Below are positions 17,052 to 25,744 of a stretch of DNA of 32,684 bases, one piece after another. The DNA comes from Polyangium spumosum (lineage in GTDB: Bacteria > Myxococcota_A > Polyangia > Polyangiales > Polyangiaceae), in the NCBI RefSeq assembly GCF_009649845.1, contig NZ_WJIE01000009.1, positions 1 to 32,684 of the forward strand. The letters are read 5' to 3'. Under the pieces are notes generated by a model. That model worked only from the letters and a program-made list of their open reading frames with translations, ran no database searches and was not told the origin of the DNA. The stretch's first letter is position 1; each line of letters starts with the position of its first letter. Made by a program: the position numbers and the translations under genes.

Positions 17052-17984
17052 ATGTACGGTCCCAAAGGTCAGAGCAGCGGCGGCGGGCGTCCGGCTGCGG
17101 CTCCCAAGAAGATCACCGTGCCGGACATTCGCGCGCGCAAGGCGAACGGACCGCCGATCGCGATGGTGACGGCCTACGACTTCACGATGGCGCGGCTCTT
17201 CGACGAGGGCGGCGCGGACATGCTGCTCGTCGGCGACTCGCTCGGCATGGTCGTGCAGGGGCACCCGACGACGTTGCCCGTGACGGTCGAGGAGATCTGC
17301 TACCACGGCCGCGCGGTCGCGCGTGGAGCGCGGCGCGCGCACGTGGTGGGGGACATGCCGTTCATGAGCTTCCAGGTCTCGGCCGTGCAAGCGCTGGAGA
17401 ACGCGGGCCGCCTGATGAAGGACGGCGCGTTCGAAAGCGTGAAGATCGAGGGCGGCGAGGAGGTGGCCGAGCACGTGCGCCGCATCGTCGCGGCGGGCAT
17501 CCCCGTGATGGGGCACGTGGGTTTGACGCCGCAGTCGGTGCACGCGATGGGCGGCTTCAAGGTGCAGGGCAAGGGCGAGGACGCCGCGGCGCGCCTCCTT
17601 CGGGACGCGCAGGCGCTCGACGAGGCGGGGGCGTATGCGATCGTGCTCGAGGCGATCCCGCCGGACCTCGCCGAGGAGATCACGGCGGCCGTGTCTGTCC
17701 CGACGATCGGCATCGGCGCGGGCGCGGGTTGTGATGGGCAGGTGCTCGTCTGTTACGACATGCTCGGCATGTACCCGGAGCTGCGCCCGAAGTTCGCGAA
17801 GCGCTTCTCCGAGGTGGGCGAGCAGATCATGGCGGCGACACGTGCGTACGTGGACGAGGTGCAGGCGCGCACGTTCCCTGGCGCCGAGCACAGCTTCAAG
17901 CCGAACGGCCCGCGCCGCGCGCCGCCGTCGGCCGAGCCCGCCGTGGCGCTGGAGGAGATTCCTCCGCACTGGCAGACGCATTAG
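17052..17984 (+). CDS. panB: 3-methyl-2-oxobutanoate hydroxymethyltransferase (ketopantoate hydroxymethyltransferase)
   Basis: KITVPDIRARKANGPPIAMVTAYDFTMARLFDEGGADMLLVGDSLGMVVQGHPTTLPVTVEEICYH...GIPVMGHVGLTPQS... are PanB signatures. The track ORF begins at 17022, but the ATG at 17052 has GGAGG 5 nt upstream. A ~45-aa Pro-rich C-terminal tail follows. Confidence 0.9.
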   Translation: MYGPKGQSSGGGRPAAAPKKITVPDIRARKANGPPIAMVTAYDFTMARLFDEGGADMLLVGDSLGMVVQGHPTTLPVTVEEICYHGRAVARGARRAHVVGDMPFMSFQVSAVQALENAGRLMKDGAFESVKIEGGEEVAEHVRRIVAAGIPVMGHVGLTPQSVHAMGGFKVQGKGEDAAARLLRDAQALDEAGAYAIVLEAIPPDLAEEITAAVSVPTIGIGAGAGCDGQVLVCYDMLGMYPELRPKFAKRFSEVGEQIMAATRAYVDEVQARTFPGAEHSFKPNGPRRAPPSAEPAVALEEIPPHWQTH

Positions 17985-18083
17985 CCTCACCCCCCATCCC
18001 CCTCTCCACTCCGTGAAGAGGGGGAGAATAAGCGCCTCTTCCCCCCTCTCCACGGAGTGGAGAGGGGTTGGGGGTGAGGCTCA
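17982..18083. repeat. compound palindromic element: two inverted ~42-bp units of a small repeat family (stop-GCCTCACCCCCARCCCCTCTCC-loop-GGAGAGGGG)
   Basis: Unit a (17982-18024, forward) is tAGCCTCACCCCCCATCCCCCTCTCCactccgtGAAGAGGGGG. Unit b (18042-18083, reverse) is CCCCTCTCCacggagtGGAGAGGGGTTGGGGGTGAGGCTCAG. Together they form a ~31-bp-arm near-perfect inverted repeat (17985-18014 with 18050-18079, one mismatch) around a 35-nt spacer. The panB TAG stop sits in unit a and the Cys-rich gene TGA stop in unit b. Confidence 0.55.
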
Positions 18084-19112
18084 GTTGCAGTCGATCCCGC
18101 AGATCAGCCCGACCTCGCCGATGCAGATCCCGTCCCAGTTCTGCTCGCAGCAATAGGGATCGGCCTTGCACACGGCCTCCGCGCACGGGTTGCACGTCGG
18201 ATCCAGCGCGCCGCCGTTCTGGCAGATCGAGTGCGCGCAGTTGCAGCTCACGCCGCACTTCATGGTCGCCGCCGCCACGCACGCCTCGTCCCAGCCCGTC
18301 GTGCAGCATTCGGGCTGATCCATGCACACCGACGTGATGCACGGATCCGCGCCGCAGAGCGTGTCGGCGAGGTAGGAGCACGCTCCGCTCCACGGCGCGC
18401 TCGAGCCCATGCCGCAGCAGGCCGGGTCCTGCATACACACCTCGTCCACGCACGACCCGCGACAAACGTTCGGGTCGAGCGCCGCGCCCGTGCCGCAGAC
18501 GGAGTGCGGACACTCCGGGCACGGACCACAATCCTGCGCGCACGTCCCGCAGTCCTCGCCGCCGTTGCACGTGCCGTCGCCGCAGGCGCAGGCGCCGCAG
18601 TCGTTCGGGCACGAGTCACACGTCTCGCCGTTGCACTCGCCGTTGCCGCAGCAGCCGGCGCTGCAGAGCTCGTCGGCGAGCGCCACGCAACCCGCCCCCC
18701 AGAAGTTGTCGCAGCAGCCCTGGCCGTTCTGCGCGTTGCAGACCTGATCGACGCACGCATTACAGCCCAGCGTGAGCGCGTCGCCGACGCTGCAGACCGC
18801 GTGCTGGCAGGTGTCGCCGCCGCCCGACGAGGACGACGAGGCGGACGACGACGAGGACGAGGACGCGCTGGACGATGAGGACGAGGCCGCGCTCGAGCTC
18901 GACGCGCTCGACGAGGACGACGCCGTGCTCCCGGACGAGGACGACGCGCTCATGCCGCCCATGCCGGCCATGCCGCCCATGCCGCCGCTCCCCCACGTGC
19001 CGCCTTCGCCGCCGCCGCCCTGGTTGTTCGGCGTGCCGAAGAGGTCCCGGCCGTCGGCCGTGCACCCGGCCGCGGCGAGCGCGGCGATCGCGAAGAAGCT
19101 TGTGAATCGCAT
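18081..19112 (-). CDS. secreted modular Cys-rich lipoprotein (poly-Ser linker, myxo-type Cys-rich repeat, four copies of an uncharacterised ~45-aa Cys module)
   Basis: The track ORF is 18081..19133 (TTG). The preferred ATG gives MRFTSFFAIAALAAAGC, a signal peptide plus lipobox, with GGAGGA 8 nt upstream. A Gly/Ser-rich linker with ~45 consecutive Ser/Ala follows. Next is CCGNGECNGETCDSCPNDCGACACGDGTCNGGEDCGTCAQDCGPCPEC, which resembles the Myxococcales CGNG...CDDGN Cys repeat. Four modules then fit C-x-H-[AS]-[VI]-C..G-ALDP-x-C..C...VC..DP-x-CC...W[DS]..C (CQHAVC..., CPHSVC..., CITSVC..., CAHSIC...). There are 60+ Cys in total. Confidence 0.8.
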   Translation of the reverse strand: MRFTSFFAIAALAAAGCTADGRDLFGTPNNQGGGGEGGTWGSGGMGGMAGMGGMSASSSSGSTASSSSSASSSSAASSSSSSASSSSSSSASSSSSGGGDTCQHAVCSVGDALTLGCNACVDQVCNAQNGQGCCDNFWGAGCVALADELCSAGCCGNGECNGETCDSCPNDCGACACGDGTCNGGEDCGTCAQDCGPCPECPHSVCGTGAALDPNVCRGSCVDEVCMQDPACCGMGSSAPWSGACSYLADTLCGADPCITSVCMDQPECCTTGWDEACVAAATMKCGVSCNCAHSICQNGGALDPTCNPCAEAVCKADPYCCEQNWDGICIGEVGLICGIDCN

Positions 19113-19178
19113 GTCCCGACTCCTCCGAGGCAAGGAGCGCGATGCTACCGCGCCCGAGCCGCCTCGTGCGCATCTTCT

Positions 19179-19219
19179 CCCCTCTCCGCGTGCGGAGAGG
19201 GGCTGGGGGTGAGGCTCAG
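19179..19219. repeat. third copy of the same palindromic element family (reverse orientation)
   Basis: CCCCTCTCCgcgtgcGGAGAGGGGCTGGGGGTGAGGCTCAG. The CCCCTCTCC/GGAGAGGGG 9-bp stem and the GGGGGTGAGGCTCAG tail match unit b at 18042-18083. The TGA of the BatA-like gene (19216-19218) lies inside GGCTCAG. Confidence 0.55.
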
Positions 19220-21225
19220 GCTGCCGCCGAACCCTCGCGCTTTTGCCCCACCGCGCGCAGGAACAGCTCCAGCACGACCAGGCCGAGCAGCCCGAGCGCC
19301 ACGTAGGGCGACGCGTCGATCGACGGCACGACGCCCCCGAGCTCCTCCGCGCGCGCCGCGTCGACGACGCGCCGCGGCCGCAGATCGATCTCGCGCTCCG
19401 GCACCGTCGCGACCCGGATCACCCGCTCGCCGTCGAGCCGCACCTCGTACCGACCTCGCAGCGGCGCCACCGCGCGGCGGCGCCCGTCCTGCTCCACGAC
19501 CGGGATCGTCCGGCGCGCCTCGCCCGCGCCGACGGGCAGTCGCTCGACCGCCACGTCCTTGAACCCGTCGAACGTGAACGCGTCGCCGACCTCGATCTGC
19601 CGCGCTCCGCCCCGGGCCCGCGCCGTGCCCACGAAGCGATCGAGCAGCGCCAGGAAGGCCGGACGCAAAACGAAGTCGCTCTCCTCCACCGTGAGCGGCA
19701 GCGACAGCACGTAGACCGCCCCGCGGCCGAGCGAGCGGCGCAAGAGCAGCGGCGCCCCGTCGTCCCAGCGCGCGAGCACGTCCGCGTTCGTCAGGGCGGC
19801 CGGATCGAAGGACGCGCGTCCGTCGGGCGAGAGCTTGGCCAGGCCCTCCGCGCTTGGCCCGAAGAACACCGCGCTCGTGGGGTCCGCGCCTTGCGACGGG
19901 CTCGCCCCCCAGCGCACCACGCCCGGCACGAGCGGGTCGAACCCCGCGCCGAGCGGCGCCGTCGCGGCGCGTGGACCGAGCGTCAAGAGCAGCACGCCCC
20001 CGCGCTCCACCCACGCCGCGAGCGAGCGCCGCACCTCCGGCGTGAAGCCCGGCACGTCGTCCACGACGAGCCCCGCGAACGCCGACAGCTCCTCCGCGTG
20101 GTCCGGCACGGCCGGCAGCGGGCGCACCTCCGCGTCGAGGTGCATCGCCGCGAGGGCCTGCTCGATCGGCGGCGGCCCGCCCGTGGCCACGTGCGAGGAC
20201 GCCACGTCCACCACGACCGCGATCGGCAGCGCCCCGCCGGCCGCGACCACCGGCGCCTCGTCGTCCTCCAGGATCGTGTCGCCCGGCGTCAGCCCGACCG
20301 TGAGCTCCGCCGGCGCGCCCGCCGGCACGTCGAGCGAGATTTCTTCGGCGCGGACCGCCGCCCCGAGCGGCGCCGAGGCGAGCACCTTGCCCTCGCCGCG
20401 GAGCTCGATCGAGCGCCCGGCCGAGGCGGAAGCGGCGCCTGCGGCCTCGGGGCTACACACGACCCGCGCCCGCACCTTGCCCGCGCGCCCGTCCGCGCGT
20501 GTCACCGCGCAATCGCCGCCCGTGGCTTCGAGCTCCGGCACGGGCGCCCAGAGCGCCGCATCCGAGCCGCCGCCGAGGGGCGGCGCGCTCGGCGCCCCGT
20601 CCGCGAGGTCGCTCAAAAGCACCACCCGCCGATCGGCGTGGGGCACGCGGAGCAGGAGCTCCCGCGCCAGGGCCAGGGCGCCTTCCAGGTCGGTCGCGCG
20701 ATCGGACGGCTCGATCATGTCGAGCGCGCCCGTCACGGCCGTCATGTTCGTCGTCGCGGCGAGCGCCACGCGCGCGGGCGCGCCGCCGAGCACCACCGCG
20801 ACCGCGTCGCCGCTGCGTAGCCCCGTCGCGAGCTCGCGCGCCGACGCGAGGGCCCGGTCGAACTTCGTCCGCTTGCCCGGCCCGCCTGGCCCGCCCTCCA
20901 GCGGCGCGCGCATGCTGAGCGAGTCGTCGATCACGATCGCCAGCGCCACCGACGCCCCGTCCTTCCGGGCCAGGCCGAGCCGCGCGCAGCGCACGAACGG
21001 CGTCGCGCCGAGCACGGCCAGCAGGAGCACGCTGAGCGCTCGCACCGCGAAGAGCGAGCGATCCTCGAGCATGCTGCGCCGCCGGGCCATGGGCTTCGTC
21101 GGCGGGACGAGTTTTGCCGGCGGGAACGGCTGCTCCTCGGCCTGCCTTCGCCGCAGCATGTGGGCCGCGATCGGCGCGGCGACGAGCAGCGCCACGAGCA
21201 GCCCGGCGATCGTGGTGAAGCTCAT
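19216..21225 (-). CDS. BatA-like membrane von Willebrand factor A (VWA) domain protein
   Basis: The track ORF runs to 21747, but its Arg/Gly N-terminal 170 aa are GC artefact. The ATG at 21223-21225 overlaps the DUF58 stop (ATGA). It gives MSFTTIAGLLVALLVAAPIAAHMLRRRQ...LLLAVLGATPFV, a BatA-type N-terminal two-helix anchor. The VWA domain has the MIDAS motif ALAIVIDDSLSM. A C-terminal hydrophobic helix VALGLLGLVVLELFL is present. ~670 aa. Confidence 0.8.
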   Translation of the reverse strand: MSFTTIAGLLVALLVAAPIAAHMLRRRQAEEQPFPPAKLVPPTKPMARRRSMLEDRSLFAVRALSVLLLAVLGATPFVRCARLGLARKDGASVALAIVIDDSLSMRAPLEGGPGGPGKRTKFDRALASARELATGLRSGDAVAVVLGGAPARVALAATTNMTAVTGALDMIEPSDRATDLEGALALARELLLRVPHADRRVVLLSDLADGAPSAPPLGGGSDAALWAPVPELEATGGDCAVTRADGRAGKVRARVVCSPEAAGAASASAGRSIELRGEGKVLASAPLGAAVRAEEISLDVPAGAPAELTVGLTPGDTILEDDEAPVVAAGGALPIAVVVDVASSHVATGGPPPIEQALAAMHLDAEVRPLPAVPDHAEELSAFAGLVVDDVPGFTPEVRRSLAAWVERGGVLLLTLGPRAATAPLGAGFDPLVPGVVRWGASPSQGADPTSAVFFGPSAEGLAKLSPDGRASFDPAALTNADVLARWDDGAPLLLRRSLGRGAVYVLSLPLTVEESDFVLRPAFLALLDRFVGTARARGGARQIEVGDAFTFDGFKDVAVERLPVGAGEARRTIPVVEQDGRRRAVAPLRGRYEVRLDGERVIRVATVPEREIDLRPRRVVDAARAEELGGVVPSIDASPYVALGLLGLVVLELFLRAVGQKREGSAAA

Positions 21226-22157
21226 GCCCGCGCCTCGGCCACGGCGCGCACCACGTCGCGCACCACGTCGGCGGGGGGCCTGTCCGTCGTCGCCTCCACC
21301 CAGCGCCCGCCTCGGCCCGAGAGCTCCCTCGACCAGCGCTCGGCGATCGCGGCGAGCCGCTCGCGGTAGATCGCGCGCACCTCCTCGGCGTCCGTCTCGA
21401 CGACCACGTCGCCCTCGCTCGCGCGTAGCCGCACGTGCCCGGAGAAGCCGAGATCCGCCTCGTTCGGGTCGAGCACCCGCACCGCCACGAGCGAGCGCCC
21501 GCCGGCCGCGAGCGCCGAAAACGCCGAGAGCGCCCGCTCGGGCAGGTCCACGAAATCGCTCACCAGCACGATCACCGCGCCGCGCCGGGCGCGCCGCGCC
21601 ACCGGGGCGAGGGCGCGCTCCATCGCGGCCTCGTCTGCGCTCGCGTCGCCTGCGGCTGCGGCCCCTTCGAGCGCGCCGGCCACCCTGTCGAACGCCTCGC
21701 GCCCGCTCGACGCCGGCAGCGCGAGCGTCCCTCGCCCGCCGATCCACGCGAGCCCCACGGGATCGCCGCTCGACAGCGCCACGCGCGCGAGCGCCGCGGC
21801 CACGAGCGCCCCGTACGCGAGCTTCGCCCCGGGGGCCCGCGTGCTCCGGTAGGCCATCGACGCGGTCGCGTCCACGCAGAGCCAGAGCGCGCGATCCGTC
21901 TCCGTCTCGAACTCGCGGATCATCATCCGGTCGTGCCGGAGCAGCGCGCGGCGGTCGAAGAACCGCAGATCGTCGCCGGGCACGTAGGGCCTGTGCCCGC
22001 CGAACTCCACGCCGGGCCCTTTTCGAACGCTCCGGTGCCCTCCGGCGTACACGCCTTCGGCCAGGGACCGGGCGCGGAGGCGCAGCGGCGCGAGGCTGCC
22101 CCAGTCGATGGGGATCCCGTCCTTTCCGGACCGCGACGAGGGGCGAGGCTCGGCCAT
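21222..22157 (-). CDS. DUF58 family protein (MoxR-associated VWA-like partner)
   Basis: GHRSVRKGPGVEFGGHRPYVPGDDLRFFDRRALLRHDRMMIREFETETDRALWLCVDATASMAY is the DUF58 signature. The preferred start is ATG at 22155-22157 (MAEPRPSS...). It is translationally coupled to the downstream BatA-like gene. Confidence 0.85.
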   Translation of the reverse strand: MAEPRPSSRSGKDGIPIDWGSLAPLRLRARSLAEGVYAGGHRSVRKGPGVEFGGHRPYVPGDDLRFFDRRALLRHDRMMIREFETETDRALWLCVDATASMAYRSTRAPGAKLAYGALVAAALARVALSSGDPVGLAWIGGRGTLALPASSGREAFDRVAGALEGAAAAGDASADEAAMERALAPVARRARRGAVIVLVSDFVDLPERALSAFSALAAGGRSLVAVRVLDPNEADLGFSGHVRLRASEGDVVVETDAEEVRAIYRERLAAIAERWSRELSGRGGRWVEATTDRPPADVVRDVVRAVAEARA

Positions 22158-22224: not shown

Positions 22225-22620
22225 GTGCGCGACAAGTTCGGCGGCTCTTTCCGCGGGGTCCTGCTCGCGACGCTCCTCGTATCGTGCGAGACCGCCGAAC
22301 CCGAGCCGGCGCCCGCGCCGCCCTTCGCGCCCTCCGCGTCGGCGGCGCCCGCGGCGCCCGTGCTGCCGCGGCGCCCGACGGTCCGCCATTACCTCGCGCG
22401 CAAGGACGAGCGTTGCGAGGTCTACGCGGTCGACGGTGATCGTGTCTCCGCGGCCACGCGGACCCCGTGCCCGCAGGATCTCCAGGTCGGCGAGCGAATC
22501 CGCGTGATGGGGAAATCGTGTATGCGGGAGGGCATCGCCGAGCGGGCGCAGCCGGTCGTCTGCCCCGGAGCGCTCCTGACGGCGGCGACGCCCCCGGATG
22601 TGGATGCCGGGGGGACCTGA
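22225..22620 (+). CDS. small secreted lipoprotein with 5 Cys (hypothetical)
   Basis: An in-frame GTG inside track ORF 22108..22620 gives MRDKFGGSFRGVLLATLLVSC, a signal peptide with LVSC lipobox. GC3 is very high. The mature part is Cys-containing: CEVYAVDGD...TPCPQD...GKSCMREG...VVCPG. It is divergent from DUF58. Start is uncertain; the alternative ATG at 22156 gives an implausibly long n-region. Confidence 0.55.
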   Translation: MRDKFGGSFRGVLLATLLVSCETAEPEPAPAPPFAPSASAAPAAPVLPRRPTVRHYLARKDERCEVYAVDGDRVSAATRTPCPQDLQVGERIRVMGKSCMREGIAERAQPVVCPGALLTAATPPDVDAGGT

Positions 22621-22640
22621 GCCTCGGGGGACCTTTGATG

Positions 22641-22718
22641 AAAGGTCTCGAGGGGGTCGATCAAAGGTCTCGAGGGGGTCGATCAAAGGTCTCGAGGGGG
22701 TCGATCAAAGGTCTCGAC
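22641..22718. repeat. 22-bp direct tandem repeat, ~3.5 copies (AAAGGTCTCGAGGGGGTCGATC)
   Basis: Read directly: three perfect 22-nt units at 22641-22662, 22663-22684 and 22685-22706, plus a partial unit AAAGGTCTCGAC that merges into the 21-bp array. The period is not a multiple of 3. Confidence 0.9.
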
Positions 22719-23009
22719 CCGGTCGCGGACCTGCTCGACCCGGTCGCGGACCTGCTCGACCCGGTCGGCGACCTGCTCGACCCGGTCGCGAACCTGCTCG
22801 ACCCGGTCGGTGACCTCCTCGACCCGGTCGCGAACCTGCTCGACCCGGTCGCGGACCTCCTCGACCCGGTCGCGGACCTGCTCGACCCGGTCGCGGACCT
22901 GCTCGACCCGGTCGCGGACCTCCTCGACCCGGTCGCGGACCTGCTCGACCCGGTCGCGGACCTGCTCGACCCGGTCGCGGACCTCCTCGACCCGGTCGCC
23001 GACCGCCTG
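22716..23009. repeat. 21-bp direct tandem repeat, 14 copies (GACCCGGTCGCGGACCTGCTC), in phase with codons
   Basis: Read directly: 14 contiguous units with few variant positions (gcg to ggc/gcc, gac to aac/gtg, ctg to ctc, last unit GACCCGGTCGCCGACCGCCTG). All six frames are open across it: DPVADLL, TRSRTCS and PGRGPAR on the + strand. Positions 2, 8, 14, 17 and 20 of the unit are the only A/T. Confidence 0.9.
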
Positions 23010-24009
23010 GACGGGGGCCTGTTCGGCGTGGGAGAGAACGCGTACCCTGGAGCTCTTGGCAACCCGGATCGAAGGGCGGATCGGAGACCATTACCAGCTC
23101 TCGGCCGTGCTCGGCCGGGGGGCCATGGGCACGGTGTACGCGGCGAAGGACCTGCGCACGGGCAAACGCGTGGCCCTCAAGGCCCTGCACGTCCGCGGGT
23201 TCCTCGACCCGCGCGACCCGGACGTCCTGCGCTTCGAGCAGGAGGCGCGTATCGCAGGATCGCTCGCGTCCGAGCACATCGCCCAGGTCTTCGACATCGA
23301 GCGAGACCCCGAGACCGAGGCGCCGTTCCTCGTGATGGAGCTGCTCCGCGGCGAGGACCTGCAATCGCTGCTCGACCGCGTGGGGCCCCTCTCGGTCGAC
23401 GTGGCCTTGCGGATCGCGGCGCAGGCCGCGCGGGGGCTCGCGGCGGCGCACGCGGCCGGGGTCGTGCATCGGGACGTCAAGCCCGGCAACCTCTACCTGG
23501 CGCGGCAACATGGCGGCGAGATCGTGGTCAAGGTCCTCGATTTTGGCATCGCCAAGATACGGCGCCTCCCGGTCGACCTGTCCGCGGGCGCCGGGCTCAC
23601 GGCGCCGCAGGCGTCGATGACGGCGACGGGGCAGCTCCTCGGCTCGCCGCTCTACATGTCGCCGGAGCAGGTGGACGGCGCGAAGGGCCTCGACGCGCGC
23701 AGCGACGTGTTCTCGCTGGCCGTGACGCTCTACGCGATGCTCGCCGGCCGGCCGCCGCACGCGGACGTGAAATCGTTCCCGATGCTGCTCACGCGTATCT
23801 CGACGACGCCCATGCCCCGCATTCGCGCGGCGGCGCCGTGGGTCTCGCCCGAGGTCGAGGCGCTGCTCGACCACGCGGCGCAGCTCGACCGCGAGGCGCG
23901 ATTCCCGAACGCGGCGGGGTTGCTCGACGCGATCGAGCCTCTCCTCCCGGCAGGCGCGGCATTACGCGAGGAGCTGCTCGTCGGCTGCGGGGGGAATTCC
24001 GGACCGTGA
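22810..24009 (+). CDS. Hanks-type Ser/Thr protein kinase (soluble); 5' end embedded in the 21-bp repeat array
   Basis: The kinase domain is unambiguous: HYQLSAVLGRGAMGTVYAAKDLRTGKRVALKAL...HRDVKPGNLYL...DFGIAK...SPLYMSPEQ. The track start, GTG 22810, lies inside the repeats and gives an N-terminus of (TRSRT[CS]S)x9. The alternative TTG at 23056 gives MATRIEGRIGDHYQL, a typical kinase N-terminus, but with a poorly spaced GGAG. There is no ATG/GTG/TTG in this frame between the upstream TGA (22636) and 22810. Confidence 0.8.
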   Translation: MTSSTRSRTCSTRSRTSSTRSRTCSTRSRTCSTRSRTSSTRSRTCSTRSRTCSTRSRTSSTRSPTAWTGACSAWERTRTLELLATRIEGRIGDHYQLSAVLGRGAMGTVYAAKDLRTGKRVALKALHVRGFLDPRDPDVLRFEQEARIAGSLASEHIAQVFDIERDPETEAPFLVMELLRGEDLQSLLDRVGPLSVDVALRIAAQAARGLAAAHAAGVVHRDVKPGNLYLARQHGGEIVVKVLDFGIAKIRRLPVDLSAGAGLTAPQASMTATGQLLGSPLYMSPEQVDGAKGLDARSDVFSLAVTLYAMLAGRPPHADVKSFPMLLTRISTTPMPRIRAAAPWVSPEVEALLDHAAQLDREARFPNAAGLLDAIEPLLPAGAALREELLVGCGGNSGP

Positions 24010-24025
24010 TGAGGACCGACGCGTG

Positions 24026-25744
24026 ATGAACCAGCGGCAGATCCTGGCTTTTGTCGAGAAGCTCCGGCAGGCGCGGACCTTCGAGGACGCCGCGCAGGCC
24101 ATGCTGCGCGGGATGCTGGACGCGGCGAACGAGGCGCTCGGGGCGAGCGGGTTCGCGAACCGAGGCCGCATCCTCCGCGGCATGGCGCATCTGCGGCCCG
24201 GCGACGGCTACCGGCGATTGGTGCTCGTCGACGACGCCCACCGGAGCGGCGAGCCCGTGATCCACCATCTGCCCTCCGCGAGCGCGTGGCGGTGGATCGT
24301 CACGCGGGGGCGCCCCATTGCGCTCGACGTCCCGCTCGGCCGCGTGTGGACGCTGGAGGACGATGCGCCGAAGGTGCTCCAGGAGGGCGGGTTCTCCGGC
24401 CAGGACAGCGTGCTGCGATTGACGAACCGCGACACGAGCCACCTCTATGCGGTCCCCCTGCGGGCCTTCCACGGCGCGATCGAGGGGATGGCGACGGTCG
24501 AGGCGGCCTGCCCGCGGGCCGTGGGCGACGATTTCATCTTCCCGGCCCTCCACGAATCGCTCGAGGTCCTCGCCGACCTCGCGGCGCCTTATCTCGCGAC
24601 CTTGCCCTTGCGGCCTGTGACGGGTGGCGCCACGGACGAGCTCTTGCCGGTCATTGGCCAGACCATGGCGGGCTTGATCGAAATGCTCCGGGTCTTCGCG
24701 CAGCAGGAGGAGACCTTGCTCATCGGCGGTCCGACGGGGGCGGGCAAATCGCGGCTGGCGCGGTGGTGCCATGCGCAATCGGTCCGGCGGGGGGCGCCGT
24801 TCGAGGTGCTCGACCTCATCGCCGTGCCCGAGGAGCTCCAGATGGCGGAGCTCTTCGGCTGGAAAAAGGGCGCCTTCACGGGCGCGGTGCGCGACACGCC
24901 GGGCTGCATCACGCGGGCGTTCAAGGGGACCTTGTTCATCGACGAGATCGACAAGCTCTCGCTGAAGGCGCAGGCGGGCTTGCTCCAGCTCCTCGAATCG
25001 CGGACGTATCGCCCGATCGGGGACGGGGCGCGGGAGCAGCAGGCGAACGTGCGCTTCATCGTGGGCAGCAACGTCGACCTGTACGATCAGGTGAAGGCGG
25101 GCCGTTTCCGGGAGGATCTTTATTATCGGATCAACGTGCTGCCCTTGAAGATCCCCCCGCTCGACGAGCGGCGGGACGAGGTGGCGGAGTGGGCGCGATT
25201 CATGGCGGTGCGGCGTCATCGTGAATCGGTGCCGGGCGGAGAGGTGCGAATCCTGGCGGGGGCGGAGCGGCTGCTGGCGGAGCACACGTGGCCGGGGAAT
25301 TTGCGGCAGCTCGACAACGTGGTGCGGCGGGCCTACGCGCTCGCGTTGATGACGCATGGCCAGGCGGGGGCGGAGGTCGTGCTGGAGGAGAAACATTTCG
25401 CGCGGGCCTTGAGCTACGAGCGCGGGAGCGAGCGGCGGTCGGCGCTGGAGGCGCTACGCGGCGCGGCGGAGGCGCTGGTGGAGGAGGCGGAGCGGCTGGA
25501 GGCGAAGGGGCAGGGGCTCGAGCTGGAGGTATGCGACGCGTTCCGCGGGATCGTGCTGGGGACGGCGGTGGAGAAGCTCGGCAGCCGGGACGCGGCGTTC
25601 CGGCTGTTCGGGAAGGGCGCGCAGGTGCAGGCGCGCAATCACCACAAGATGTTGCGGCGCGAATGGGAGAAGGTGGAGGCGCTCTGCAAGGCGCTCGGGG
25701 AGGAGGGAGCGCCGTTCAAGGGGATGGGGGAGGAGGAGGGGTGA
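24026..25744 (+). CDS. sigma-54-dependent transcriptional activator (GAF-like N-domain, AAA+ sigma-54 interaction domain, degenerate C-terminal HTH)
   Basis: Walker A is LLIGGPTGAGKSRLAR. The GAFTGA motif is WKKGAFTGA. Walker B/ESR is TLFIDEIDKLS...RFIVGSNVDL...EDLYYRINVL. The ATG is 14 nt after the kinase stop and follows GAGGA, fitting an operon with the Ser/Thr kinase. Confidence 0.9.
   Translation: MNQRQILAFVEKLRQARTFEDAAQAMLRGMLDAANEALGASGFANRGRILRGMAHLRPGDGYRRLVLVDDAHRSGEPVIHHLPSASAWRWIVTRGRPIALDVPLGRVWTLEDDAPKVLQEGGFSGQDSVLRLTNRDTSHLYAVPLRAFHGAIEGMATVEAACPRAVGDDFIFPALHESLEVLADLAAPYLATLPLRPVTGGATDELLPVIGQTMAGLIEMLRVFAQQEETLLIGGPTGAGKSRLARWCHAQSVRRGAPFEVLDLIAVPEELQMAELFGWKKGAFTGAVRDTPGCITRAFKGTLFIDEIDKLSLKAQAGLLQLLESRTYRPIGDGAREQQANVRFIVGSNVDLYDQVKAGRFREDLYYRINVLPLKIPPLDERRDEVAEWARFMAVRRHRESVPGGEVRILAGAERLLAEHTWPGNLRQLDNVVRRAYALALMTHGQAGAEVVLEEKHFARALSYERGSERRSALEALRGAAEALVEEAERLEAKGQGLELEVCDAFRGIVLGTAVEKLGSRDAAFRLFGKGAQVQARNHHKMLRREWEKVEALCKALGEEGAPFKGMGEEEG

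Follow-up and report, generated by a model that had tools for sequence, protein, structure and literature searches.

What kind of element joins the 3' ends of two convergent genes when each half of it begins at a stop codon, how did it come to lie there, and what may have moved it? The element in question is a compound palindrome between panB and a Cys-rich gene in the stretch of Polyangium spumosum DNA analysed here (the window; 32,684 nt, positions 1 to 32,684 of contig NZ_WJIE01000009.1, assembly GCF_009649845.1), where a third copy of the same module stands alone between the Cys-rich gene and a BatA-like gene. On balance, these units are likely to belong, as non-autonomous copies, to a GC-rich and pan-bacterial class of repeats, BoxC/PIT (potential intrastrand triplex), which the DUF559 family of predicted nucleases may help to spread.

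The module has the form GCCTCACCCCC-NN-CCCCTCTCC-loop-GGAGAGGGG over approximately 40-50 nt and consists of a C-rich head, a 2-nt spacer and a hairpin of 9-11 bp. A pattern search of the window returned three matches, compared with 0.02 expected from shuffled sequences, and the exact hairpin core occurs twice against an expectation of 0.00, in agreement with the three copies noticed in the initial annotation. Units 2 and 3 match the pattern exactly, while unit 1 is a diverged copy with three mismatches and a shifted stem of 8 bp. The head, previously taken as a mere prefix of the hairpin, is indeed present in every copy, but its role as a third block had been overlooked: read in reverse, it agrees with the 5' arm at 10 of 10 positions in unit 1 and at 9 of 9 in each of the other two, with a single A/T swap. 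As the head mirrors the hairpin arm, one strand carries three blocks with the potential to fold back on each other. A 3' extension of about 11 nt, AGAAnAnGCGC, is common to all three copies (after unit 3 it reads AGAAGATGCGC), and they therefore represent one local subfamily.

Units 1 and 2 are arranged heads-out and together make up the palindrome, which is thus a pair of inverted units as originally described, with inverted-repeat arms (17992-18024 and 18042-18074) of 33 nt that are 88% complementary. As RNA, either strand of the region 17975-18090 forms a single long hairpin (-86.8 and -94.0 kcal/mol, z about -11). Every head abuts a stop codon, and the G of the panB TAG is at the same time the first base of unit 1. 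The absence of a U-tract was likewise borne out, since no intrinsic-terminator-like site was found between 17500 and 19700: the hairpin is present, with no U-tract directly after it. An Rfam scan returned nothing at gathering thresholds except a tRNA, and no family for the module. Matches of the long hairpin to eukaryotic miRNA models, which appeared in an E-value scan far below the cut-offs, were set aside as artefacts. The module is not known to match integron attC sites, CRISPR repeats, terminal repeats of Tn3 or IS elements, or rRNA-, tRNA- or SRP-derived sequences, and these candidates were dropped.

The history of these sites can be read from four syntenic loci, in Polyangium mundeleinium (L121; panB identity 92%), Polyangium sp. 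15x6 (L122; 91%), a Polyangium metagenome-assembled genome (MAG; L221; 93%) and a more distant Polyangiaceae MAG (L220; 82%), of which the first three are referred to below as the close relatives. All three units are missing from all four loci at these sites. In each of the four, panB ends in ...CAG ACG CAT TGA at the same codon position, and the stop positions of the Cys-rich and BatA-like genes are kept in the three close relatives. Since these unit-free relatives already stop at the same codons, the units are derived insertions and not makers of the stop positions; the earlier proposal that they supply the stops of their genes holds only for the G of the panB TAG, a codon that corresponds to TGA plus GCCTCA minus a G. 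Between panB and the TCA of the Cys-rich gene, the close relatives have an unrelated spacer of 45-48 bp with its own GC hairpin, and L220 has a different, longer spacer; in P. spumosum, the doublet stands in place of the whole stop-to-stop spacer. At the BatA-like stop, the close relatives read GCC TGA AC CGCGGTAGC and the window reads GCC TGA, 63 nt and CGCGGTAGC, with the 63-nt segment lying between that stop and the ribosome-binding site of the Cys-rich gene. To judge from this alignment, the solo unit represents a clean 63-nt gain directly after an existing stop, and the units as a whole came into the P. spumosum lineage by insertion or replacement just 3' of existing TGA stops, after its split from the four relatives.

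A fifth sequence, from the Logan assembly SRR33304886 (L222, 3487-3518), has a panB 99% identical to that of the window, and its contig ends after CAT TAG in a poly-G artefact, which makes it uninformative on the doublet. The doublet seems to defeat short-read assembly, so that draft genomes and MAGs may show fewer repeats of this kind than really exist.

The module had been considered peculiar to this lineage and not nameable from the literature. Searches with the exact window strings retrieved only eukaryotic papers on primers, G-quadruplexes and triplexes, while the relaxed core CCCTCTCCC/GGGAGAGGG led to two bacterial reports (PMC4666352, PMC2869309) that do provide names. The class has been known as BoxC in E. 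coli since the 1990s, as PIT in the work of Hoyne and Maher and as TMECO (Holder et al. 2015, PMC4666352), where the earlier studies of Bachellier and of Hoyne and Maher are cited. The TMECO pattern is CCCTCNCCC N3-6 GGGNGAGGG N3 GGGNGAGGG, with 23 copies in strain MG1655, including five inverted pairs, and 3610 copies in 262 genomes (PMC4666352). Triplex formation was reported for the isolated TMECO strand, and not in duplex DNA or in vivo; TMECO loci are associated with raised local variability and small deletions, and copies lie upstream of open reading frames (ORFs) more often than downstream, with no preferred distance to ORFs in MG1655 (Holder et al. 2015, PMC4666352). For PIT elements, neither promoter nor terminator activity has been observed in E. 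coli (PMC4666352). In Enterobacter sp. 638, 100 hairpins of the form CCCTCTCCC-XX(X)-GGGAGAGGG were noted "at the 3' end of genes", with a presumed role in termination (Taghavi et al. 2010, PMC2869309).

The window units share with BoxC, PIT and TMECO the succession of a C-rich arm, a loop, a G-rich arm, a short loop and a second G-rich block, which is a mirror image of the first apart from a single change of A to T, so that an arm, its Watson-Crick complement and a third block mirroring the purine arm are found in both the units and the TMECO reference. The resemblance extends to a length of about 35-40 nt, GC richness, multiple intergenic copies, frequent inverted pairs and uneven copy numbers among close relatives (from 1 to 32 in a single E. 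coli genome; some Polyangium species with units and others without); in the 32.7 kb of the window there are three copies, one inverted pair among them, and none at the corresponding sites of the four relatives. The differences concern the register, CCCCTCTCC/GGAGAGGGG/GGGGGTGAGG in the window versus CCCTCNCCC/GGGNGAGGG/GGGNGAGGG in TMECO, the myxobacterial host, and the position of the copies, all three of which abut stops in the window in contrast to the MG1655 copies. A strict TMECO regular expression found no match in the window because of a register shift of one C and a second loop of 2 nt instead of 3. From sequence comparison, the units are thus best classed as a register variant of the BoxC/PIT/intrastrand-triplex class, sister to TMECO rather than TMECO sensu stricto, and both this assignment and the insertion history are regarded as highly probable. 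The Enterobacter sp. 638 repeat has the same hairpin core, differing in that the paper gives the hairpin only, with neither a third block nor an associated gene (PMC2869309).

The suggestion of a dispersed repeat family resembling repetitive extragenic palindromic (REP) sequences or miniature inverted-repeat transposable elements (MITEs) was supported in its general sense. Like REP sequences and the doublets mobilised by REP-associated tyrosine transposases (REPIN-RAYT systems), the units are short and palindromic, and inverted doublets form a single hairpin (PMC5581495, PMC8266576, bioRxiv 10.1101/2021.07.10.451892). They differ in possessing a third mirror block and in having neither GTAG nor CGTC at the head, the tetranucleotides by which most REP superfamilies are defined (PMC3733652), since they start with (A)GCCTCACC, and their core strings occur nowhere in that paper. 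The doublet has inverted ends as MITEs do, but the spacer replacement and the plain 63-nt gain come without a direct repeat.

The lineage restriction was clearly contradicted by a scan for the exact 20-base pattern with one genome per species, which recovered at least 120 stretches across many phyla; the matches listed include Bacteroidota, Chloroflexota, Acidobacteriota, Armatimonadota, Planctomycetota, Patescibacteria and Spirochaetota, as well as Xanthomonas and a Myxococcales MAG. A further 93 stretches were found in viral contigs. Among the matches listed, 134 of 151 units have, beyond a loop mostly of 4 nt, the complementary arm that the pattern itself had left free, and heads-out pairs 80-300 bp apart are common.

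Adjacency between head and stop proved to be a tendency of the whole family. When a stop of an ORF of at least 100 codons was sought within -3 to +10 nt, it was found at the head of 15 of 139 complete units from unrelated genomes and at the tail of only 2 of the 139; in a related count, 16 of 154 units had a stop at the head, compared with 57 of 2380 random positions (2.4%). The head-specific tendency is real, but it concerns about a tenth of the copies. The base at position -1 is A in 90 of 151 units among the matches listed, and the stops are of all three kinds with none preferred. A TGA-specific target, suggested by the TGA present at all three local sites in the relatives, was therefore rejected as a general rule. 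The preference could reflect a targeting rule, or a filter that keeps only those copies which leave ORFs intact and contribute their C-rich strand to the transcript.

Many units of Bacteroidota lie in frame inside long ORFs of 900-1600 codons. Examples are found in L066 (1026-5777, minus strand) and L090, as well as in L012, L018, L045, L060 and L095, and typical peptides encoded by in-frame units are SLTPNPSPKGEGS or LPSPFGEGLGVRL. In the glutamate synthase GltB of two rumen MAGs, a unit occupies the same spot just before FYICSL in opposite orientations. Rickettsia palindromic elements (RPE), which Ogata et al. reportedly described in 2000, are said to be short and able to sit in frame inside protein-coding genes as well; there is no sequence relation between the two, and the three copies of the window are all outside ORFs.

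Among the viral sequences, several phage contigs (L231, 1650-2900, IMG/VR UViG_3300020057_000061; also L226, L236, L251, L295 and L300) contain dozens of units on a single strand. In these tandem arrays, which repeat about every 72 nt and start a few bases past gene stops, units alternate with a half-unit beginning GCCTCACCGACGACGAG. Phages could carry the repeat between hosts.

The most informative loci are those in which units enclose a gene. In two Prevotella loci (L067, L053), a plus and a minus unit bracket a gene of 129 aa that belongs to DUF559 (PF04480, E 7e-33). At two further independent loci of Bacteroidota, a DUF559 gene is wedged between cysD and cysN or between gyrB and coaD, with inverted unit variants on its flanks; the unit begins directly after the cysD TAA at the former, and the gyrB TAA lies inside a unit at the latter. 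A probe with the family consensus retrieved thousands of DUF559 proteins, and among the best 120, which are high-GC homologues, roughly half, as judged by eye, carry unit-derived peptide tails such as ...LTLTLSQRERE, PHPNPLPGGERE and SPSPRPSPQGGEGE, or the N-terminal TPSPLRGEGWGEG. The DNA of three loci whose DUF559 genes have such tails, one of them from Parvibaculum, displays a full [+ -] gene [+ -] layout in one case (L136) and a minus unit upstream with a + - doublet downstream in the other two (L137, L138).

In a set of 80 metagenomic DUF559 loci, a recognisable unit lies within 250 bp of the gene in 49, upstream in 34, downstream in 39 and on both sides in 24. Positions are stereotyped, with plus units at -140 to -100 and minus units at -65 to -30 before the gene, and plus units at +20 to +55 and minus units at +110 to +145 after it; by orientation, 28 minus and 15 plus units occur upstream, and 36 plus and 8 minus units downstream. 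Unit density reaches 1.85/kb near the gene versus 0.035/kb in distal flanks, and within the non-ORF DNA of the same contigs it is 2.34/kb near DUF559 versus 0.35/kb elsewhere, a roughly 7-fold difference. The gene between units was DUF559 in every locus examined, and searches with hidden Markov models (HMMs) detected no DUF559 remnants inside gene-less doublets. The association between the units and DUF559 is very probably real. No paper linking the repeat to DUF559 or YcjD was found in the literature on DUF559, ycjD, REPIN/RAYT with Vsr, myxobacterial REP sequences or intrastrand triplexes with endonucleases, and Holder et al. mention neither ycjD nor any endonuclease (PMC4666352). "DUF559 domain-containing protein" is, however, 14-fold enriched among genes flanked by inverted repeats (PMC9881135), an enrichment explained by units that bracket DUF559 genes.

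The same loci reveal a problem of annotation. Gene callers run neighbouring genes into units, as in L123 (3393-3440) and similar cases, for example with a cysN start inside an inverted unit, and DUF559 products acquire tails of the PLERGWG or ...LSQRERE type by extension into units. Such extensions are likely to be systematic annotation errors in public databases.

DUF559 (PF04480) is assigned by profile comparison to the Vsr-like PD-(D/E)XK nucleases of the EDxHD type (PMC3424549, PMC9403480). Its profile matches PDB entries 3hrl (E 5e-38) and 3r3p (E 1e-5), the latter being the mobile group-I-intron homing endonuclease I-Bth0305I, and residues E59, D61, H65 and D72 are invariant in the DUF559 alignment. 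The E, D, H and D residues are thus kept in common with I-Bth0305I (Taylor et al. 2011, as cited in PMC9403480 and PMC3424549), and DUF559 genes resemble those of homing endonucleases in being wedged into tight gaps between housekeeping genes and in being present or absent between strains. They differ in that a repeat with many dispersed copies does not usually flank the genes of homing endonucleases, and a homing site and cleavage by YcjD-type proteins are putative.

E. coli offers a case in which both partners were already on record. The stop codon of ycjD, a member of DUF559, lies in the loop of a degenerate plus unit, and TMECO no. 9 of Holder et al. is found 168 bp downstream in inverted (minus) orientation; ycjD thus fits the [+ -] gene [+ -] layout. 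In the ycjD-fabI region of strain K-12 (L219, 1780-1925), approximately 45 nt in the interval that separates this degenerate unit from TMECO no. 9 repeat the 3' end of ycjD itself with roughly 80% identity, and this partial copy seems to be what is left of another or earlier DUF559 gene within the doublet. As an indel polymorphism, the ycjD segment is carried by 3375 of the 5426 complete E. coli genomes, and it replaces eefRABCD in phylogroups A, B1 and C (PMC12817139). The fabI-sapF interval of O157:H7 was considered as a clean empty site and rejected, as it carries eefRABCD in place of ycjD. TMECO copy number per complete E. coli genome has a median of 18, with 28-30 copies in some strains and 349 places on plasmids. 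ST131 and ATCC 25922 (B2) have 1-3 copies and K-12 has 20, a comparison with ycjD status that is suggestive and is confounded by phylogeny.

Considering these observations, a mechanism analogous to that of REP/REPIN with RAYT, or of homing sites with homing endonucleases, can be proposed with a different enzyme. A DUF559 nuclease encoded elsewhere in the genome would recognise the unit as duplex, hairpin, cruciform or transient triplex and nick or cut at it. Repair templated by another copy would then spread, maintain or homogenise the units and could carry the gene into a doublet. Gene-less doublets would be landing sites of the nuclease gene or its deletion derivatives; recombination between direct repeats, that is, between outer and inner units of a [+ -] gene [+ -] arrangement, would leave a gene-less [+ -] doublet like that at 17984-18080. 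The module would settle preferentially head-first right after stops and, in Bacteroidota, even in frame inside genes. Once in place, the units are probably near-neutral in effect; their very stable 3' RNA hairpin could protect transcript ends, though the units are not canonical terminators. As with RAYT genes, the nuclease gene is itself flanked by repeats, which far outnumber the genes. The role of DUF559 as the mobilising or maintaining enzyme is put forward tentatively, and it is possible, though less likely than not, that BoxC/PIT repeats in many phyla are, by the same analogy, non-autonomous partners of DUF559/YcjD-family Vsr-like nucleases in a REPIN-RAYT-like or homing-like relation.

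Several observations weigh against this proposal. No unit was recognisable by regular expression in 31 of the 80 metagenomic DUF559 loci; conversely, a DUF559 gene occurs in only 2-3 of 120 unit-selected genome loci among the matches listed, and in none of the 93 viral unit loci (748 kb, HMM searches), which leaves the majority of units distant from any such nuclease gene. The window itself and 42 kb of syntenic Polyangium DNA (L121, L122) contain no DUF559 gene, so that for P. spumosum itself the link is putative. Neither a target-site duplication nor a defined cleavage site was seen in the comparison of filled and empty sites. The action of YcjD-type proteins on these repeats is putative only, and E. 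coli O157:H7 has 14 TMECO copies yet no ycjD at fabI-sapF. The association could also come down to nothing more than a liking of units and gene for the same sites of insertion, or to a regulatory function of the units for the DUF559 gene.

The most serious competitor is that the units are selected RNA 3'-end modules, either U-tract-independent terminators, as the initial annotation had suggested, or hairpins that block 3' exonucleases. In P. spumosum all three heads follow stops with the C-rich strand as sense, the RNA hairpin is very stable, and the doublet took the place of an older GC-rich hairpin spacer between convergent genes. Elsewhere, head-side stop adjacency recurs across phyla, 36 of 44 units downstream of DUF559 are in plus orientation, the phage contigs have same-strand tandem arrays right after stops, and a termination role was presumed by the authors of the Enterobacter sp. 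638 study (PMC2869309). A terminator function nevertheless received no positive support: there is neither a U-tract nor a terminator-like site, PIT elements reportedly had neither promoter nor terminator activity in E. coli, and TMECO copies are more often upstream of ORFs (PMC4666352). Unit 3, moreover, lies 66 nt before the next start between co-directional genes, probably a single two-gene transcription unit that termination would uncouple; many units of Bacteroidota lie in frame inside long ORFs, and the four Polyangiaceae relatives do without units altogether. Selection at transcript ends, which would account for where copies are tolerated and not for the arrival of identical 40-nt modules at new loci, is considered unlikely.

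That arrival could also be credited to a different enzyme or to none. The heads-out doublet that yields one long hairpin has the architecture of a REPIN, and copies are extragenic and dispersed, as would be expected if a RAYT, an IS200/IS605-like Y1 HUH transposase, mobilised classical REP sequences and the DUF559 link were incidental. The missing GTAG/CGTC head (PMC3733652) and the identity of the bracketed gene, a DUF559 PD-(D/E)XK Vsr-like nuclease and not a Y1 HUH transposase in every case examined, make this very improbable, and no Y1 transposase was noticed near any unit, with no systematic search made for one. Hardly more credible is an origin as structure-driven by-products, the "genomic instability" view, in which GC-rich motifs prone to triplex, H-DNA or hairpin formation arise and duplicate without an enzyme of their own, when replication slips or error-prone repair acts at fragile sites. 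Such an origin would agree with the local variability and small deletions at TMECO loci (Holder et al. 2015, PMC4666352), with the replacements free of target-site duplication in P. spumosum, and with the Logan assembly of the 99%-identical strain, which breaks exactly at the element. However, slippage does not account for near-identical 40-nt modules at unlinked loci in distant phyla, and neither the ordered [+ -] gene [+ -] layout with its roughly 7-fold DUF559 enrichment nor the head-specific stop adjacency follows from it. Spread of BoxC/PIT-type units in connection with DUF559 is thus the reading preferred here.

For the window alone, the outcome is deflationary: the palindrome belongs, as a variant from a myxobacterium, to a class of repeats on record from E. 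coli for some 30 years, and in itself the element is ordinary. What is new is the comparison of filled and empty sites, the family-wide bias of heads towards stops, and the DUF559 link, for which no prior description was found. BoxC/PIT/TM repeats, which abound in many bacteria and have had no assigned function or spreading mechanism (PMC4666352), gain a candidate enzyme, and DUF559, a large family including the E. coli gene ycjD with no assigned function, becomes testable with BoxC. The preference of heads for stops, together with the copies that lie in frame inside genes, points to a rule of targeting or else to strong selective filtering. If the proposal is true, a PD-(D/E)XK nuclease with specificity for a three-block DNA module, one that forms a hairpin or triplex, would stand at the core of a system comparable to REPIN-RAYT or homing. 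Several annotation artefacts also find an explanation, including proline/glycine-rich tails of DUF559 proteins, spurious PSP..GEG ORFs, false "programmed inversion" calls and assembly breaks.

Positions of the repeat units and of the adjoining genes in the 32,684-nt window of Polyangium spumosum
Feature	Positions	Strand	Details
Unit 1	17984-18026	+	head GCCTCACCCCCC 17984-17995; spacer AT; 5' arm CCCCCTCTCC 17998-18007; 3' arm AAGAGGGGGAG 18016-18026
Unit 2	18041-18080	-	head GCCTCACCCCC = complement of 18070-18080; hairpin CCCCTCTCCAC/GTGGAGAGGGG within 18041-18067; exact pattern match
Unit 3	19179-19215	-	head = complement of 19205-19215; hairpin 19179-19202; exact pattern match
63-nt segment with unit 3 and its 3' extension (19153-19178)	19153-19215	-	no counterpart in close relatives
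Doublet centre	18025-18042		AGAATAAGCGCCTCTTCC; overlap of the 3' extensions from both doublet units, around GCGC
Heads-out doublet (compound palindrome), 97 bp	17984-18080		units 1 and 2, between panB and the convergent Cys-rich gene
panB (3-methyl-2-oxobutanoate hydroxymethyltransferase)	17052-17984	+	stop TAG 17982-17984; PF02548, ORF list
Cys-rich secreted or lipoprotein-like gene	18081-19112	-	stop TGA (tca) 18081-18083; ATG 19110-19112 after GGAGGAG
BatA/VWA-domain gene (maximal ORF)	19216-21747	-	stop TGA (tca) 19216-19218; ORF list

The assignment of the window to P. spumosum is confirmed by its panB product (PF02548), which is 100% identical to the P. spumosum protein P0001. The Cys-rich gene has syntenic counterparts of 335-338 aa in the relatives, where the BatA-like gene encodes 675-677 aa, with PF07584 and PF13519 detected on the syntenic genes. 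Elsewhere in the window, an ordinary tRNA gene (391-463; 66.3 bits) lies upstream of the ribosomal-protein/rpoB-rpoC cluster. A tandem array at 22637-22717 comprises 3.7 copies of the 22-bp unit GATCAAAGGTCTCGAGGGGGTC, with a period not divisible by three, and adjoins a second array at 22713-23004 with 13.9 copies of the 21-bp unit CTCGACCCGGTCGCGGACCTG. The latter would encode (LLDPVAD)n in frame with the ORF at 22467-24026, and the arrays (22637-23004) may represent either a repetitive N-terminal protein region or non-coding DNA.

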